A stretch of DNA of 46,021 nt, from sequence record OR472559.1, one strand, 5' to 3'. The notes beneath the pieces were generated by a model. That model had not been told where the DNA came from and made no database searches. It saw only the letters and a program-made list of their open reading frames with translations. This document shows, in pieces, positions 2,216 to 9,872 of the stretch. This DNA is from Pseudomonas phage Arefeen1. Position numbers and translations under genes: made by a program. Position 1 is the stretch's first letter. The number at the start of each line of letters is the position of its first letter.

Positions 2216-3178
2216 ATGGCCCGTATCAAGTATGCCTTCGGTATGAAGTCCAGGGAGTCTGGGGCTAAGGCACTCAAGGTGATGACCTCTTCCTCCTGCT
2301 TCGGTACCATGGAAGGTCCGGTAACCCACGGCTATAAGCTCGACGGTTGGACCTTCATCTGCTCCCGTCGAAGCAAGAAGTTCATCGATGCACTCAATAA
2401 GTGTACCCAAGGTGAACTCAAGACCATCACCATCGGCGGCAAGGCCTTCAAGATCCCGAAGGTCCACTTCTGGTCTTACGAAAGCAAGGCCAAGGATTCC
2501 CCCTTCATGAAGTACGTCTGCGGGCCGGAAATGATTAGCCCCACCCAGCATGGGAAGGAGGGGGTCTGCGGTATCTACTTCAGACCGAAGGAGCATACCC
2601 TGGATTCCTGGTACCCCATCATGAAGTTCCTCTTCAAGATGATATCCAGCGGACTCGACTACCTAGGTCGTGAGGAGGAGGTCCATCTGAAGCTTGCTGA
2701 GAAGCATGGCTTCTGGAAGTCCTACCTCGCAATGTCCTTCCACGGGCTGATAGCCAATGGCTACACCGGGTATCCCCTCTCCAACTACATGTTCAGTAGC
2801 GATTGGGATGACCTCAAGAAGGGGGATATCCACATCCAATCCGCTGAAGAGTCTATGCGATTCGGTCGTTGGATGGCCAATCGGGATGTCCCAGGTGGAC
2901 GTGAGTGGGTAAGGAACACACCCTGGCGGTCTGAATTCCTGAAGATCCAGTTGGACAAGGTGGAGGTAGTTACCATAGCCCCTCAGCCAACCGTCTTCGG
3001 AAAGAAAGACCCCTACATGACCGTAGATAGCGAGGTGGGAGGTTTCATCCGCCTTTATCCTCATACCTGTGAAAAACACGGAGTAGTCATGCTGGGGATC
3101 ATGGGTAATATTGGCTGGCGAAGCGGCGAACAGGCTGTCTATGCGGCCCTCGAAGACTTCATCGAGAAAAACTTCTGA
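2216..3178 (+). CDS. hypothetical protein (first gene of the amidoligase operon)
   Basis: Strong RBS CAACCAAGGAGAAAA; no motif recognised. Confidence 0.6.
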   Translation: MARIKYAFGMKSRESGAKALKVMTSSSCFGTMEGPVTHGYKLDGWTFICSRRSKKFIDALNKCTQGELKTITIGGKAFKIPKVHFWSYESKAKDSPFMKYVCGPEMISPTQHGKEGVCGIYFRPKEHTLDSWYPIMKFLFKMISSGLDYLGREEEVHLKLAEKHGFWKSYLAMSFHGLIANGYTGYPLSNYMFSSDWDDLKKGDIHIQSAEESMRFGRWMANRDVPGGREWVRNTPWRSEFLKIQLDKVEVVTIAPQPTVFGKKDPYMTVDSEVGGFIRLYPHTCEKHGVVMLGIMGNIGWRSGEQAVYAALEDFIEKNF

Positions 3179-3196
3179 CAACCAAGGAGAAATCAA

Positions 3197-4153
3197 ATGG
3201 GAATGTATGCAGCCCATAATGTGTACTATGACGCCGAGGGCTCTGTTGTACACCAATACTCGGTCAAGAGCATGACCGAATATACAAACTGCTTCGGAGC
3301 CTATTGCGACGAGACCTCCGGCGTTAGTGGCGACCGATGGGTTACCGGGGTTGGCCACCTGCTGGTATCTACCCACGAGAATACCTCTGGTAAACTGGTG
3401 GAGTTCCTTAACAGTGATTTGGTCAACAGGATTACCGACGGTGGTATCCTCTCGGCCTCTATCGACTGGCCTACTCGTTGGTGGGATTACAATGATGATC
3501 TCAAGAATCTCAATGATCCCGACCACTTCTCTCCCCCAGGACGCCGGCAGGCAGTGTATGTACGGGTGGACCTCAGGAAGAACGCATCGGCCATCATCTG
3601 TGCTCTCCGAATGGGAGATCGCTTGTGGTGTGTAGGTGATTCCATGCGTCGCATCACCCAGGAAAATCGTGATAAGATCCTGGGCTGCAATGCAGAGATC
3701 CTCACCCTCGCGGCTTGTGCCCAGGTAGGCAGCACTGCTCATTGCGACAGCTACCCAGCCATGTTCCCGGTGACTGCTGGTGAATACCGGGAGGGCTGCG
3801 AGAGCCACGGCTGGGAGGTGGATGACAGCTACATAAGCGAGGTCATGGATGGTATCGTAGGTGGGTACAAGAATATCACCTACTTCGATATTAAGAGCAT
3901 CCATGAGCGGACTCGCGAAGAGTTCAAGGACAAGCTCAAGCATCACGACGCTGAGTTGTGGCAGGGGTATACCAAGGATGATTACCTGATCGAATGCGAC
4001 GGTCTCGAAGGTGTACCTAATGACCGAATCCTTTCCATCATGGCCCCAATCACCATTGACGTAGGTGACCCAGGTCGGGAAAGGTCCGAGGTCGTACCCA
4101 CCAGCCAATACAGCATCCCCGAAATCCTCGAAAAACTGGAGACTATGCAATGA
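3197..4153 (+). CDS. hypothetical protein
   Basis: Same RBS context as 2216; no motif recognised. Confidence 0.6.
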   Translation: MGMYAAHNVYYDAEGSVVHQYSVKSMTEYTNCFGAYCDETSGVSGDRWVTGVGHLLVSTHENTSGKLVEFLNSDLVNRITDGGILSASIDWPTRWWDYNDDLKNLNDPDHFSPPGRRQAVYVRVDLRKNASAIICALRMGDRLWCVGDSMRRITQENRDKILGCNAEILTLAACAQVGSTAHCDSYPAMFPVTAGEYREGCESHGWEVDDSYISEVMDGIVGGYKNITYFDIKSIHERTREEFKDKLKHHDAELWQGYTKDDYLIECDGLEGVPNDRILSIMAPITIDVGDPGRERSEVVPTSQYSIPEILEKLETMQ

Positions 4154-4950
4154 ACAACGCAATCCCCCTGATCGGTGCAGATCCCGAAGTTTTCGTCGGC
4201 TACGACCGTAACCCCCAGAGCGTCATCGGCTTCATCGGTGGAACCAAGGAAGCGCCCTTGGCTGTAGCCGGTGGTGCCGTCCAAGAAGACAACGTTCTTC
4301 TGGAGTACAACATCGACCCGGCCAGCACCAAGGAAGAGTTCGTGAAGCGTATCGTTTCCGTTCGACTCCTGGGTGCCCAGATGCTCCACCCCTTCGGCAT
4401 GAACATCATCGAGAACCTGTCCTCTCACCTGTACGACGAGGAACTCCTCCGCAGCTTCGGTCCCCAGGCTTACGTCTTCGGTTGCGAGCCGGACTACAAC
4501 TGCTGGACTCGTCGTCAGAACGTGATGCCGAAGGATGCCCCTCCGACCCTGCGCACTGCTGGCGGCCACGTCCATATCGGCTTCAGCCACATCGAGCGAG
4601 TCACCAAGGCGAACACCCGCGAGGTCATGCAGATGTGTGACTACCTCCTGGGCCTGGCGTCTGTCATCCTCGACGGTGACACCCAGCGTAAGAAGCTGTA
4701 CGGCAAGGCTGGCGCAATGCGCTATAAGCCCTACGGCGGCGAGTACCGTAGCCTGTCGAACTTCTGGATCTTCTCTGTCGATCTGACCGAGTGGGTCTAT
4801 GAAATGGCAGTACGGGCTTACACCTCCAAGCACCTCCTGGAGGAGTACAAGTCCATCGTATCTGGCGATGAAGTCCAGCGAATCATCAACGAGAACGACG
4901 GCGCCGCGGCGGTAGCTGCACTTAAAGCGCTGGGGGTGGTATATGAATGA
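4150..4950 (+). CDS. COOH-NH2 ligase, GCS2/YbdK-like (carboxylate-amine ligase family)
   Basis: GGHVHIGF motif resembles the GxHVHxG of the YbdK/GCS2 family; ATGA overlap with the upstream gene. Confidence 0.45.
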   Translation: MNNAIPLIGADPEVFVGYDRNPQSVIGFIGGTKEAPLAVAGGAVQEDNVLLEYNIDPASTKEEFVKRIVSVRLLGAQMLHPFGMNIIENLSSHLYDEELLRSFGPQAYVFGCEPDYNCWTRRQNVMPKDAPPTLRTAGGHVHIGFSHIERVTKANTREVMQMCDYLLGLASVILDGDTQRKKLYGKAGAMRYKPYGGEYRSLSNFWIFSVDLTEWVYEMAVRAYTSKHLLEEYKSIVSGDEVQRIINENDGAAAVAALKALGVVYE

Positions 4951-8447: not shown

Positions 8448-8553
8448 TTAGTAATAACCCCTGTACGTCTCAAAAGTAAGAGCGACAGACTTAGGGCCCT
8501 AAGAATATTCTGTGGTGAGGGTCACGAAAGGCTCTCCAGGGGTTATTGCTGGC
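8448..8553 (+). promoter_or_regulatory. large intergenic stem-loop (about 17 bp stem, about 74 nt loop containing palindrome CTTAGGGCCCTAAG)
   Basis: GUUAGUAAUAACCCCUG pairs with CAGGGGUUAUUGCUGGC; a paralog of 2155-2200. Confidence 0.45.
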
Positions 8554-8589
8554 TTCACTACTACCCTCAACAGAAACAGGAGATTTGCC

Positions 8590-9474
8590 ATGTTCTATAT
8601 CTATAAAGGTGCCCGCCCCTCTGCTGGTGCTGTAGCCCTTCGTAACGCCCTGGGTGCTCGAATCCTTCGCTCCGAGGGGTCTACCTATCGGGGTCGTGCG
8701 GGTACTGCGGTAATCAACTGGGGCACTGTTGGTGCAGAGGCTCACCGACTCCGGGATATTGCCCCTGTGTTCCTCAACGACCCGGCAGTTGTTTACCGCT
8801 GCTCTAACAAGCTGGAGTTCTTCCGACACTTCGAGGCCAATGCCCCTCATCTGATTCCCCGTTGGACCGAGCGCTGGGAAGATGCCTTGGGTGTCCTCAA
8901 TATCTCTGGTCGCATGTATGCACGTACCGATCTGAACGGCCATAGCGGTCGCGGCATTCACCTGGTGTGTACTGTCAATGATGCAGAAGTTGCTGCAATC
9001 GATGCTCTCCGTAGACAGGGCCACTACCCGGTACACATCTACGGTCACACCCACATCCCGGATGTTATCACCAGGGCACAACTGTTCACCCAGGGAATCG
9101 TCGGTAAGCGTACCGAGTTTCGAGCCCATGTGATCCGTGGGGAAGTAGCACTTCTCCAAGTCAAACTCCGCCGTGTTGCCAATGAAATGGTGACCAACGA
9201 AGGACAAAGCATCGTTCGTAACGTAGCTGGCGGCTGGGTCTACGGGGTTAACGATGCAATGGACCGTGATGGTGCTGAGCAGTCTATGTCGGCAGCGGCA
9301 GAGGCAATCCAGGTGGCTGGGCTGGACTTCGGTGCAGTAGATATCATCTTCCAGCACGCCACTGGCCGGGCCTTTGTCCTGGAGATCAACACCGCCCCAG
9401 GTCTGGACGCTGAAGGCAGCGCCCTGGAGGCATACGTCAAGGGCTTCAGCAAAATCTTCGAGGAGACTATCTAA
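8590..9474 (+). CDS. ATP-grasp ligase (RimK-like)
   Basis: VLEINTAPGL C-terminal ATP-grasp motif; internal Met with a CAGGAG RBS; the upstream part of ORF 8512.. overlaps the stem-loop. Confidence 0.6.
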   Translation: MFYIYKGARPSAGAVALRNALGARILRSEGSTYRGRAGTAVINWGTVGAEAHRLRDIAPVFLNDPAVVYRCSNKLEFFRHFEANAPHLIPRWTERWEDALGVLNISGRMYARTDLNGHSGRGIHLVCTVNDAEVAAIDALRRQGHYPVHIYGHTHIPDVITRAQLFTQGIVGKRTEFRAHVIRGEVALLQVKLRRVANEMVTNEGQSIVRNVAGGWVYGVNDAMDRDGAEQSMSAAAEAIQVAGLDFGAVDIIFQHATGRAFVLEINTAPGLDAEGSALEAYVKGFSKIFEETI

Positions 9475-9872
9475 TGGCTGTTCGTGTTTTCGTTTATGGT
9501 ACTCTCCTGTCAGGTTTGTACAACCACTACCTTCTGGAAGGGGCCGAGTTCATCGGCAATGCTGTATCCTGCGAGCGGGGTCTGATGTACTCCGCTGGCG
9601 GCTTCCCCATCCTCTCCTTCGCCTCTCGTGCTGACCTCATCGTAGGTGAAATCTGGCAACTCCCCGAGGGCGAAGCGGGGGATGAAATGCTGGAGAACCT
9701 GGATGCCCTAGAGGGTTATCCGGGTTGGTATGATCGTACCCTCAAGGATTTCCGAATCAATGGGGAACGCATCAAGGCCCTGGTGTACCATCAGGATAGC
9801 CACATGGCGATGGATATCGTCAAGGATGGCGACTGGAAGGCACACCTGGCAAAACGACAAGGAGCAGTATAA
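9474..9872 (+). CDS. gamma-glutamyl cyclotransferase-like (GGCT/AIG2 fold)
   Basis: N-terminal VFVYGTL motif is the GGCT hallmark (YGSL/YGTL). Confidence 0.65.
   Translation: MAVRVFVYGTLLSGLYNHYLLEGAEFIGNAVSCERGLMYSAGGFPILSFASRADLIVGEIWQLPEGEAGDEMLENLDALEGYPGWYDRTLKDFRINGERIKALVYHQDSHMAMDIVKDGDWKAHLAKRQGAV

Follow-up and report, generated by a model that had tools for sequence, protein, structure and literature searches.

Positions 2216 to 9872 of the window, a 46,021-nt stretch of Pseudomonas phage Arefeen1 (OR472559.1), hold the Bruynoghevirus version of an "amidoligase module" that is widely conserved and essentially confined to viruses. Nine ORFs occupy this region head to tail on the + strand, the strand of every feature described below. 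The region is the counterpart of gp14-gp22 of LUZ24 (Bruynoghevirus comprises LUZ24-like Pseudomonas phages), and its gene set was 96 to 98% identical to those of dozens of deposited genomes. The module has six conserved components: a COOH-NH2 ligase type 2, an Amidoligase_2, a gp17-like protein, a zinc-ribbon-bearing enzyme of GATase fold, an ATP-grasp ligase resembling RimK, and an enzyme that cleaves gamma-glutamyl amides; gp14, gp15, gp20, and gp23 are lineage-specific accessories. Our preferred reading, to which we assign a probability of about 0.42, is that the module uses ATP to build and trim a gamma-glutamyl or amide-linked conjugate on a small amine or peptide in the host cytoplasm, and that it serves host takeover and not DNA modification.

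Catalytic components

HMM searches supported all five catalytic assignments of the earlier note, which had set failure at fewer than three; four proteins scored above Pfam cut-offs, and the ATP-grasp ligase was recovered through a family profile. PHROG matches had E values of 1e-43 to 1e-197, and each catalytic motif quoted in that note was found in its ORF. The five genes had been called consecutive, but gp17 and gp20 intervene.

The first core enzyme, gp16 (4150..4950; GGHVHIG), matched PF14395 (COOH-NH2_lig; 32 bits, cut-off 25; E = 9.5e-8) and PHROG 3815 (7e-119). It had been described as a YbdK/GCS2-like ligase; it is a glutamine synthetase (GS)/GCS-like carboxylate-amine ligase, but of the phiEco32-type COOH-NH2 ligase type 2 family (PF14395) and not of Pfam GCS2/YbdK proper. 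Residues E13, E52, H140, H142, R180, R191, E198, and R200 were invariant across nine divergent phage lineages, and a sequence search for a solved relative returned none. Relatives of gp16 were present in 318 phage records, and the ligase family was virtually absent from cellular genomes, that is, essentially virus-restricted. The second core enzyme, gp18 (5488..6663; FGFEVELEG and SIEFRG), which has a charged/coiled C-terminal extension, matched PF12224 (Amidoligase_2; 24.2 bits, cut-off 22; E = 3.7e-5) and PHROG 7631 (1.6e-197), with E33, E35, E37, D53, E61, H98, H100, R133, E190, and R192 invariant among 37 sequences. Characterized GS-, GCL-, PuuA-, and PafA-type ligases all activate the gamma-carboxylate of Glu. 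In a Bruynoghevirus trained on several strains, two lines that evolved independently each had missense changes in the amidoligase and the GATase, and these parallel changes suggest that the module affects infection success.

The third core enzyme, gp19, is a stand-alone enzyme consisting of an N-terminal domain of class-II (Ntn) GATase fold whose catalytic Cys is at the N terminus (6675..7304) and a C-terminal half (7305..8207) in which a low-complexity linker and a variable region precede a conserved CxxC...CxxC zinc ribbon. The protein (6675 to 8207) contains MCG, HNRYATMG, and NAHPF and matched GATase_6 (PF13522; 92.7 bits, cut-off 27; E = 2.4e-26). Across the 85-member family, the MCG start and the HNG and DS motifs were kept, and the middle region was not conserved. 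Residues that bind free glutamine or a gamma-glutamyl moiety were conserved as well. Partial matches of the N-terminal domain to those of GlmS, PurF, AsnB, and EgtC all fell far under cut-offs, and a Pfam search of the C-terminal half found no domain, including no synthase domain. The Cys4 zinc ribbon that the earlier note had placed on this protein lies at Cys466/469 and Cys502/505 (residues 466 to 505; nt 8070 to 8189), and at least two CxxC motifs were present within the last 90 residues in 55 of the 85 family members. The role of ammonia donor proposed for gp19 stands as one reading, but the enzyme also resembles EgtC-type gamma-glutamyl amidohydrolases.

The fourth core enzyme, gp21 (8590..9474; VLEINTAPGL), truly starts at the ATG at 8590, which is preceded by AGGAG, and not at the GTG at 8512. 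As a single sequence it gave sub-threshold Pfam matches only; a profile of its 36-sequence family matched structures of RimK-type glutamate ligases (7qyr, 2.8e-13; 4iwx, 3.2e-12) ahead of MdnB/C, Ddl, and LysX, and the invariant K/E/D/E-x-N residues are retained. The invariant positions were K75, R113, E177, R179, K193, D252, E266, and N268; these numbers refer to the aligned translation, which starts at 8587, and drop by 1 for the 8590 start. The match to PHROG 2599 reached 3.9e-104, and the score against NCBIfam rimK_fam was 17.9 (cut-off, 143).

The gene for gp22 (9474..9872; VFVYGTL) encodes an AIG2/GGACT-type gamma-glutamyl(amine) cyclotransferase, which in this lineage is the component that cleaves gamma-glutamyl, and matched PF06094 (GGACT; 73.3 bits, cut-off 22.8; E = 3.3e-20). 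Its nearest solved relatives were YkqA, human and mouse GGACT, and YtfP. Enzymes of the GGACT and C26 families act on free gamma-glutamyl amides in which the alpha-amino group of Glu is unblocked.

The gp17 family and lineage-specific proteins

Between the two GS-like ligases lies gp17 (4943..5512), a stand-alone protein of ~200 amino acids (aa) built of small beta-barrels that belongs to a family previously without annotation. Its members abut Amidoligase_2, occur in 82 of 89 loci, and share the conserved motif R-x-P-x-R-Q-x-x-x-G. Its barrels resemble the SH3/Sm/KOW/Tudor type, and no invariant Lys, Glu, or C terminus able to act as an acceptor was found in the family. Probably, gp17 is a noncatalytic adaptor or a substrate-binding subunit.

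The remaining proteins had narrow distributions. At the head of the block, gp14 (2216..3178; 320 aa, basic, pI 9.1) had no Pfam or NCBIfam match, belongs to a PHROG that carries no function (9504), and had homologues in 5 of 89 loci, all Bruynoghevirus-like, with no profile similarity to the same-position proteins of phiEco32 or Zobellviridae. Likewise, gp15 (3197..4153; 318 aa, acidic, pI 4.8) had no Pfam or NCBIfam match, and a search of 5.8 billion proteins gave just 5 clusters of homologues, all in related phages. Its AlphaFold model was unusable (pLDDT, 50.5), and phiEco32 gp87 (323 aa) shares its coupled position with undetectable homology. The small acidic gp20 (8217..8438; 73 aa) matched PF23825 (DUF7195; 5.2e-19) and was present in 7 of 89 loci; its C-terminal Glu is not kept in more distant relatives. 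Just beyond the block, gp23 (9872..10249; 125 aa) had no Pfam match, belongs to PHROG 8197, which carries no function, and was also present in 7 of 89 loci. A search of the module for a conserved small tag-like protein found none, and the small ORFs upstream of the ATP-grasp gene were lineage-specific.

Gene junctions and expression

The earlier note had described ATGA overlaps at all genes and identical ribosome-binding contexts for three unannotated proteins. The ATGA overlap occurs at gp15/gp16 only, where the stop of gp15 overlaps the ligase start; the remaining junctions are overlaps of 1, 8, or 25 nt or spacers of 0 to 18 nt. The ribosome-binding contexts were near-identical for gp14 and gp15 (CAACCAAGGAGAAAnCAAATG) and not beyond these two, and that of gp19 resembles them. 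At the downstream end, gp23 shares 1 nt with gp22 and runs directly up to the primase/helicase gene. The block has a single large intergenic gap, a structured one of 151 nt upstream of gp21. It contains a structured RNA element (8439..8562) with a minimum folding energy of -57.8 kcal/mol (z = -4.1), and none of 200 shuffles folded equally well. Among the P. aeruginosa relatives the outer stem is kept, and one A-U pair has become G-C by a compensatory change; an Rfam search returned no family match. The element may be a processing or regulatory site. The module had been placed early, before any replication gene, a timing read from gene position. In phiEco32, gp79, which lies inside the same module, is experimentally a middle gene; expression is probably early to middle, with transcription alongside DNA-metabolism genes.

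Distribution and genomic context

Four enzymes co-occurred in 85 to 89 of 89 loci (GATase in 89, Amidoligase_2 in 88, and the ATP-grasp ligase in 85), which span LUZ24-like, phiEco32-like, Zobellviridae, and VPp1-like phages, a Rhizobium phage, and a crAss-like phage. The set occurs in hundreds of phages. Within 10 kb, GGCT was found in 27 loci, peptidase C26 in 67, and at least one of them in 86. The two distributions were near-complementary, with the GGACT type here and C26 in most other lineages. In 74 of 80 loci the module adjoins the primase/helicase; in the crAss-like phage it lies in the replication block, between primase and uracil-DNA glycosylase. A T7-like replication module inherited from a common ancestor (E values, 1e-24 to 1e-167) may account for much of this synteny.

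Six-base palindromes were strongly avoided in this genome (median observed/expected, 0.73 versus 1.00; P = 6e-11), with 12 palindromes absent, and likewise in every module-bearing lineage tested, including phiEco32. Such avoidance can by itself account for resistance to restriction-modification (RM).

Proposed function and alternatives

What the families imply matches the earlier reading of a gamma-glutamyl or amide-linked metabolite, or of amidation or glutamylation of a macromolecule. We lean toward a small-molecule acceptor first and a tagged protein second; the acceptor may be of the polyamine or peptidoglycan-precursor type. With ATP, the GS-like ligases would convert a glutamate-type carboxylate to an acyl-phosphate and couple this to an amine, giving a gamma-glutamyl-amine bond, with gp17 as a noncatalytic adaptor or substrate-presenting subunit for Amidoligase_2. 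The RimK-like enzyme would append another amino acid, probably Glu, through an alpha linkage. The Ntn enzyme would either release ammonia from glutamine for the amidation of a carboxylate or hydrolyze a gamma-glutamyl amide as EgtC does, and GGACT or C26 would take off the gamma-glutamyl group as 5-oxoproline or Glu. Together, these steps would make or turn over a gamma-glutamylated metabolite during host takeover.

We favor a small-molecule acceptor because of the catalytic families and residues, their co-occurrence, gp17, the GGACT/C26 pattern, and the free-glutamine-binding residues of the GATase, and also because of the lack of a tag protein, the virus restriction of the ligases, and the parallel missense changes. 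Against it, the nearest solved relatives of gp21 (RimK, microviridin ligases, and LysX) act on proteins or peptides, and the gp17 barrels and the zinc ribbon are typical macromolecule-binding modules. Moreover, the location in the replication block even in the crAss-like phage would suit a nucleic-acid or replisome target as well.

Our second reading is protein tagging, which we consider possible though rather unlikely. Here, Glu or a short Glu-containing peptide would be attached to a lysine or the C terminus of a host or phage protein, e.g., ribosomal protein S6 or a factor in replication or transcription, as a phage analogue of Pup/PafA/Dop or RimK/RimB; gp17 would recruit the target, and the Ntn enzyme and GGACT/C26 would be the deamidase and eraser. 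PafA/Dop likewise comprises two GS-like ligases. The RimK-first ranking of the gp21 profile, the noncatalytic gp17 barrels, the zinc ribbon, and missense changes that arose in parallel under host-range selection are all consistent with tagging, and later papers attribute to Iyer et al. (2009) the framing of such neighborhoods as possible peptide-tagging systems. However, there is no conserved small tag or carrier in the module, the acidic C terminus of gp20 is not kept, gp17 has no invariant acceptor residue, GGACT and C26 normally act on free gamma-glutamyl compounds and not on protein-embedded Glu, and gp21 falls far short of the rimK_fam cut-off.

Modification of nucleic acid, in which an amino-acid or amide side chain would be added after replication to a phage DNA base or to tRNA/RNA and shield the genome from restriction, appears improbable. 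It would parallel the suspected amidoligase/GATase role in some thymidine-hypermodifying phages, and amidoligase and GATase Pfam matches do co-occur with 5-hmU kinase and aGPT-Pplase genes on viral contigs (PMC8989533). The location beside the primase/helicase, the likeness of gp17 to Sm/KOW/Tudor nucleic-acid binders, and the presence of the module in Gordonclarkvirinae, which are unusually RM resistant without a known modification pathway (PMC11990801), point the same way. However, no dUMP hydroxymethylase, 5-hmU kinase, aGPT-Pplase, or DNA transglycosylase was found in the LUZ24 annotation or among the module proteins, and the synteny may largely be inherited with the replication module. 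Palindrome avoidance is a strategy of phages with unprotected DNA and, together with the normal BamHI digestion of Bruynoghevirus Delta DNA, argues against bulk DNA hypermodification.

GATase-coupled enzymes of the MurT/GatD and AsnB type are known to amidate stem-peptide carboxylates. This precedent and the C-terminal similarity of gp21 to D-Ala-D-Ala ligase would fit a special case of the small-molecule reading, in which the ligases and amidotransferase add or amidate stem-peptide residues of cytoplasmic peptidoglycan precursors, changing the envelope of infected cells and excluding superinfection. PMC10580990 attributes this cell-wall proposal, the original one for phiEco32, to Iyer et al. 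(2009). We regard it as the least probable alternative: the module has no Mur-ligase, transpeptidase, flippase, or membrane component and all its proteins appear to be soluble, a wall could hardly be remodeled within a short lytic cycle, and amidoligase and GATase genes (the full module not shown) have also been reported from viruses assigned to archaea, whose cells have no peptidoglycan.

Comparison with known systems

Several characterized systems share part of the logic of the small-molecule reading or of its rivals. Like the module, the actinobacterial Pup-PafA-Dop system pairs two homologous GS/GCS-like enzymes in a writer and eraser logic, one joining the Glu gamma-carboxylate to an amine and its paralogue acting as deamidase/eraser. 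In contrast, the phage module has no Pup-like small disordered tag ending in Gln/Glu and no proteasome link, its ligases fall into different Pfam families (PF14395 and PF12224), and it adds ATP-grasp, Ntn, and GGACT/C26 enzymes. RimK (the ribosomal protein S6 poly-alpha-L-glutamate ligase), LysX, MptN, and CofF are the nearest solved or curated relatives of gp21 and share its ATP-grasp catalytic residues, but gp21 scores far under the family cut-offs and is therefore not an orthologue. Its RefSeq name, "Ribosomal protein S6 glutaminyl transferase," is a transferred label and not a finding.

In Puu/Pau polyamine catabolism, a GS-like ligase (PuuA) makes a gamma-glutamyl-amine and a C26 hydrolase (PuuD) takes the gamma-glutamyl group off again. 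Most module loci have C26 as the partner, and the GGACT type found here is also gamma-glutamyl-amine specific. The module differs in having no oxidase/dehydrogenase steps, in ligases that fall outside Gln-synt_C, and, in the window, in GGACT instead of C26. In ergothioneine synthesis, the GCS2-type ligase EgtA adds a gamma-glutamyl group that the stand-alone class-II GATase-fold EgtC, a partial match of gp19, removes. In butirosin synthesis, the ATP-grasp ligase BtrJ adds a transient gamma-glutamyl handle and the GGCT-fold BtrG removes it. The likeness to both is in reaction logic only; their other pathway enzymes are absent.

The closest system is the phiEco32 gp88-gp76 neighborhood, credited in later papers to Iyer, Abhiman, Burroughs, and Aravind (2009), after which PF14395 is named and to which the present module belongs. 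The gene order is the same: two proteins of unknown function, COOH-NH2 ligase, gp17-like, Amidoligase_2, GATase, small ORFs, ATP-grasp, GGCT, and primase/helicase. In contrast to the present module, phiEco32 has the RNAP inhibitor gene gp79 inserted in its module and longer GATase and ATP-grasp proteins, and the counterparts of the flanking gp14, gp15, gp20, and gp23 have no detectable homology. The earlier note was right that the combination had been noted computationally, and its statement that no product had been determined agrees with the searchable literature, where papers from 2014 to 2026 make only annotation-level mentions citing Iyer et al. (2009) and report no product. Although the gene combination was already known from the 2009 computer prediction for phiEco32, the gp17 family as a fifth core family, the co-occurrence counts over 89 loci, the GGACT/C26 distribution, and the virus restriction of the ligases are new.

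Gene content and layout of the region

The region at 2216-9872 (+ strand) matched 85 Pseudomonas phage records by megablast, of which 61 covered at least 80% of the query, among them SaPL (98.1% identity) and LUZ24 (96.3%). Nine ORFs, all on the + strand, tile the region as the counterpart of LUZ24 gp14 to gp22, after which come gp23 and the primase/helicase gene gp24. An earlier note, made from the sequence alone, had assigned five enzymes here from catalytic motifs. Every motif that it quoted was found in the ORFs, and all five assignments stand, four on Pfam matches above the curated cutoffs and gp21 through a family profile. 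The layout proved less regular than described: the enzyme genes, said to be consecutive, are interleaved with gp17 and gp20, and the ATGA overlaps said to couple all genes reduce to a single one at gp15/gp16. As in LUZ24, gp21 starts at the ATG at 8590 and not at 8512, and a 151-nt gap precedes it.

Promoter- and terminator-like sites in consensus scans were no more common in the block than in shuffled sequence; none bounds the block, and no convincing promoter or terminator lies within 2216-9872. The block appears to belong to a long unit that continues into the replication genes. Its description as an early operon is better stated as early-to-middle, because phiEco32 gp79, which lies inside the corresponding gene set, is a middle gene. 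Upstream of the early genes, at 383-411 (+), a promoter matches the sigma-70 consensus perfectly (TTGACA, 17 nt, TATAAT, and the TG of an extended -10). Just upstream of the block, 1170-1994 (+) encodes a 274-aa protein that combines a lipoprotein-type signal (…ITAGC) with an SPFH/Band 7 domain (Pfam, 1.7e-21); its labels in related records are HflK-family, lipoprotein, and even "transposase." It is unusual for a phage to encode a membrane-scaffold protein in its early region.

The sole large intergenic gap of the block, at 8439-8562 (+) between gp20 and gp21, has a very stable multibranch RNA fold (-57.8 kcal/mol, z = -4.1) and no Rfam match. Its long outer stem is kept in the Pseudomonas aeruginosa relatives, where a single compensatory change replaces A-U by G-C; the interior varies between phages. 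Lying ahead of the ATP-grasp gene, this RNA might be a site of RNase III-type processing or a regulatory element.

Assignment of the five enzymes

The four enzymes that define the phiEco32-type phage amidoligase gene set (here, the module), namely, a COOH-NH2 ligase type 2, an Amidoligase_2, a class-II GATase, and an ATP-grasp ligase, are all colocated in 4150-9474. PHROG matches agreed with the Pfam placements (E values, 1e-43 to 1e-197). The first ligase, gp16 (4150-4950), belongs to PF14395 (COOH-NH2_lig; 32 bits; gathering cutoff, 25), and its active-site residues E13, E52, H140, H142, R180, R191, E198, and R200 are invariant. The second, gp18 (5488-6663), passed PF12224 (Amidoligase_2) only marginally, at 24.2 bits against a gathering cutoff of 22, but matched PHROG 7631 at 1.6e-197 and has 15 invariant columns among 37 sequences. 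Neither of these glutamine synthetase (GS)-like ligases had an NCBIfam match, and sequence profiles found no solved-structure relative for either.

The class-II GATase, gp19 (6675-8207), matched GATase_6 at 2.4e-26. The class-II (Ntn) signature (MCG start, HNG and DS motifs) is kept in its family (85 members), and the Ntn Cys and the glutamine-binding residues are conserved. In place of a synthase domain, gp19 has a variable linker and a conserved zinc ribbon. Partial matches were to GlmS, PurF, AsnB, and EgtC, the last of which is a gamma-glutamyl amidohydrolase; gp19 may be an ammonia donor to one of the GS-like ligases or a gamma-glutamyl amide hydrolase. The name GlmS is a misannotation, because gp19 lacks the two C-terminal SIS (sugar isomerase) domains of that enzyme (no SIS match in Pfam) and scored 28.7 bits against TIGR01135 (cutoff, 418), with the match confined to residues 2 to 115.

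The assignment of gp21 (8590-9474) was the weakest of the five, as the single sequence gave only subthreshold Ddl-type matches in Pfam and the PDB. A family profile built from 36 members in different phages matched RimK-type alpha-L-glutamate ligase structures (2.8e-13 to 9e-12), followed by microviridin ligases, D-Ala-D-Ala ligases, LysX, and cyanophycin synthetase. The invariant residues K75, D252, E266, and N268 correspond to the ATP-grasp K / D / E-x-N nucleotide-Mg residues. Against the curated RimK family TIGR00768, gp21 scored 17.9 bits (cutoff, 143.4), and judged by sequence it is RimK-like rather than RimK. The last enzyme, gp22 (9474-9872), belongs to PF06094 (AIG2/GGACT; 73.3 bits; cutoff, 22.8), with VFVYGTL at its N terminus and a candidate catalytic Glu in LDALEGYPGWYDR; its nearest solved structures were YkqA, GGACT, and YtfP (GGACT subgroup). 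NCBIfam gave no equivalog-level match to GshA or GshB of glutathione synthesis and the gamma-glutamyl cycle, and gp21 had only weak RimK/MptN/Ddl-type matches there. When the longer forms of the ATP-grasp, GATase, and Amidoligase_2 proteins were considered as possible Rosetta-stone fusions, no additional Pfam domain was found in them.

Distribution and core of the module

By tblastn, 318 phage records carried the COOH-NH2 ligase and 311 the ATP-grasp protein, with nearly equal host distributions that included Pseudomonas, Escherichia, Vibrio, Aeromonas, Proteus, Salmonella, and others. Reduced or rearranged modules were found in VPp1, in Zobellviridae (HP1, RIO-1, CVT22, and GP100), in a Rhizobium phage, and in the crAss-like phage cr108_1. 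IMG/VR yielded 391 confirmed relatives, of which 80 loci were kept. In a comparison set of 89 loci, iterative profile searches showed that all 89 have both the COOH-NH2 ligase (by construction) and the class-II GATase; 88 have Amidoligase_2, 85 an ATP-grasp enzyme, and 27 a GGCT. Clustering of the remaining ORFs added two broad families, one of the peptidase C26 type and one that includes gp17.

The first of these, a ∼213-aa peptidase C26/class-I GATase-like protein (Pfam), was present in 67 of the 89 loci and was nearly complementary to GGCT: 59 loci had C26 only, 19 had GGCT only, 8 had both, and 3 had neither. A gamma-glutamyl-cleaving enzyme was therefore found in 86 of 89 loci; two of the three exceptions are on contigs of at most 12 kb, and the third, 13.7 kb long, was excised from a 28-kb contig. 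The core comprises six components, including the new putative adaptor family of gp17. Among 185,579 species genomes, the ligase occurred in only 44 loci, nearly all on phage-sized or tiny MAG contigs. The module is a viral system and not a host-derived auxiliary metabolic gene set; being restricted to viruses, it is not a borrowed host pathway.

The gp17 family and accessory proteins

The slot between the two GS-like ligases is filled by a family of ∼207-aa proteins, of which gp17 (4943-5512) is a divergent member (hhalign, 96.6% to the family and 92.7% to phiEco32 gp85). A family-wide HMM found gp17-like proteins in 82 of 89 loci, and in 76 of these 82 the gene lay at most 150 nt upstream of Amidoligase_2. 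The family spans 1,361 representative clusters of stand-alone proteins of ∼200 to 230 aa (all of the top 150 representatives stand alone), named hypothetical throughout except for one "virion structural protein" label. It had no Pfam domain and no solved relative by sequence. Its conserved positions are Arg and Gly within R-x-P-x-R-Q-x-x-x-G; because no acidic, His, or Cys column is invariant, we read gp17 as a probable noncatalytic adaptor or substrate-binding subunit.

No gp17-like gene was detected in L051, L053, L061, L073, L081, and L006 (crAss-like and related contigs). These loci have an Amidoligase_2 with an N-terminal extension of ∼220 to 245 residues and a large ORF of 460 to 520 aa between the ligases; by hhalign, the extension of the long crAss-type Amidoligase_2 is not itself gp17-like. 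In the Pseudoalteromonas phages HP1 (L005, 5143-6342) and RIO-1 (L010, 6264-7460), it is the COOH-NH2 ligase that is extended, by ∼150 N-terminal residues with no Pfam match, in which two repeated "VGD-x-V-x-I" segments resemble small beta-barrel motifs.

At the sequence level, gp14, gp15, gp20, and gp23 were limited to Bruynoghevirus-like phages. Comparison of gp14 and gp15 with phiEco32 gp88 and gp87 and with the ∼377-aa "fam2" protein of Zobellviridae gave hhalign probabilities of at most 20%, and the AlphaFold model of gp15 (pLDDT, 50.5; alignment of 6 sequences) was too poor for interpretation. We considered gp20 (8217-8438; DUF7195), which ends in …EDYFE, as a LysW-like amino-group carrier for a RimK/LysX-like ATP-grasp enzyme and rejected it, as the C-terminal Glu is kept in close relatives only and is lost in distant ones, which end in …LFP or …YFP, and because a small acidic-tailed ORF ahead of the ATP-grasp gene is not shared across the lineages. 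No small ORF of any kind adjoining this gene is conserved among them. The module thus differs from a Pup-like tagging system, in which a conserved small tag with a C-terminal Gln or Glu would be encoded with the ligases. In Citrobacter phage CVT22, three tandem paralogous ORFs of ∼75 aa (gp53 to gp51; L007, 12306-12993), all with …LENE at the C terminus, immediately precede the ATP-grasp gene and are possible lineage-specific peptide substrates of that ligase.

Possible products of the module

Characterized enzymes of the GS/GCL/PuuA/PafA type form an acyl-phosphate at the gamma-carboxylate of Glu and transfer the activated group to an amine, and RimK-type ATP-grasp enzymes add alpha-linked Glu or join an amino acid to a Glu at a C terminus. 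Enzymes of the GGACT and peptidase C26 types (for C26, PuuD and gamma-glutamyl hydrolase) cut gamma-glutamyl amides whose Glu has a free alpha-amino group. The near-universal presence of GGACT or C26 therefore points to gamma-glutamyl-amine chemistry. Our leading, still tentative, explanation is a gamma-glutamylated small amine or peptide metabolite, to which we give a probability of roughly 0.4. We favor a small molecule or peptide because these eraser enzymes normally use free gamma-glutamyl compounds and because no conserved tag-like protein accompanies the module. A polyamine would be a candidate acceptor by the logic of the enzyme families.

The module could instead tag proteins, and the RimK/microviridin-ligase affinity of the ATP-grasp enzyme, the gp17 barrels, and the gp19 zinc ribbon all speak for this; we consider it unlikely, although it is the best placed of the alternatives. 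Also unlikely is a virus-only writer/eraser with a gp17-family adaptor that would covalently gamma-glutamylate a specific host or phage macromolecule (a replication, transcription, or translation protein or a nucleic acid), with the Ntn enzyme and GGACT/C26 reversing or maturing the mark. If true, well over a thousand phage lineages would share a new class of phage-encoded posttranslational (or postreplicative) modification.

Modification of nucleic acid is improbable, although the position of the module, gene co-occurrence elsewhere, and resistance to restriction in one phage group speak for DNA as the acceptor. The module adjoins primase/helicase in 74 of 80 loci and lies inside the replication block of the crAss-like phage, but the primase/helicase genes of these phages are homologous, so the synteny may be largely inherited rather than functional. 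Amidoligase and GATase genes co-occur elsewhere with thymidine-hypermodification genes (PMC8989533); here, no 5-hmdU hypermodification gene (dUMP hydroxymethylase, 5-hmU DNA kinase, or aGPT-Pplase) was annotated in LUZ24 or detected by profile searches among the module proteins. Gordonclarkvirinae are resistant to restriction-modification (RM) (PMC11990801), but this genome and all of the module-bearing lineages tested, phiEco32 among them, are strongly depleted of six-base palindromes, and such avoidance, a strategy of unprotected DNA, can itself explain RM resistance. The DNA of one Bruynoghevirus also digests normally with BamHI, and "not cut by SmaI" is uninformative because the window has a single SmaI site (CCCGGG, only at 41315) against ∼18 expected. 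On these grounds we downgraded DNA hypermodification as a leading explanation. Least probable of all is modification of the cell wall through a peptidoglycan precursor, a special case of the small-molecule reading.

Over the whole window, 26 of the 64 six-base palindromes had an observed/expected ratio (O/E) of at most 0.25, and 12 were absent, among them ACGCGT, ACTAGT, AGATCT, ATGCAT, CTCGAG, CTGCAG, GTCGAC, GTGCAC, and TGATCA. Depletion was similar in phiEco32, VPp1, CVT22, GP100, RIO-1, and the Rhizobium phage locus and weaker in the crAss-like locus (median O/E, 0.86). Elsewhere in the window, 40044-40372 (- strand) encodes four tRNAs, Pro(TGG), Tyr(GTA), Asp(GTC), and Asn(GTT); three were confirmed at the Rfam gathering threshold, and the 87-nt tRNA-Tyr was missed. 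In three of the four, the anticodon is of the GUN type, which in bacteria is the set bearing queuosine at position 34.

Significance and comparison with known systems

The module is among the most widespread multienzyme gene sets of tailed phages with chemistry yet to be found. More than 300 sequenced phages carry it, with hosts in Pseudomonas, Escherichia, Vibrio, Aeromonas, Proteus, and marine bacteria, and so does a crAss-like gut phage. Among the carriers are Bruynogheviruses and Kuraviruses, two groups that have been used or proposed as therapeutic phages. In directed evolution of Bruynoghevirus FJK, two independent lines both acquired missense mutations in the amidoligase and the GATase; that two module genes changed in parallel when a therapeutic phage was trained on multiple clinical strains is the only experimental hint on the module. 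Knowing the product would bring to light either a new metabolite made by phages or a macromolecular modification of a new kind and would correct misleading database names such as "GlmS" and "ribosomal protein S6 glutaminyl transferase."

The combination has been annotated at the family level in UFV-P2 and LUZ24. Later papers credit Iyer et al. (2009) with two hypotheses, one of a cell-wall modification that prevents superinfection and one of secondary-metabolite synthesis or peptide modification, and describe the function as still to be explored. An eLife paper gave a similar gene set in "Phage-ZRK32" a role in nitrogen metabolism without direct evidence. Literature searches up to 2026 found no biochemical or genetic determination of the module's function, in agreement with the earlier note, whose finding, that of a combination noted computationally with no product determined, was correct and carefully hedged. 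The gene set has been described before and is near-identical in dozens of deposited genomes, and phiEco32 has a collinear module from gp88 to gp76 that is likewise followed by primase/helicase. To this we add gp17 as a fifth core gene, the complementarity of GGACT and C26 across phage lineages, the restriction to viruses, and arguments against DNA hypermodification, which make the problem more tractable, if not solved, and give bulk DNA modification a lower priority.
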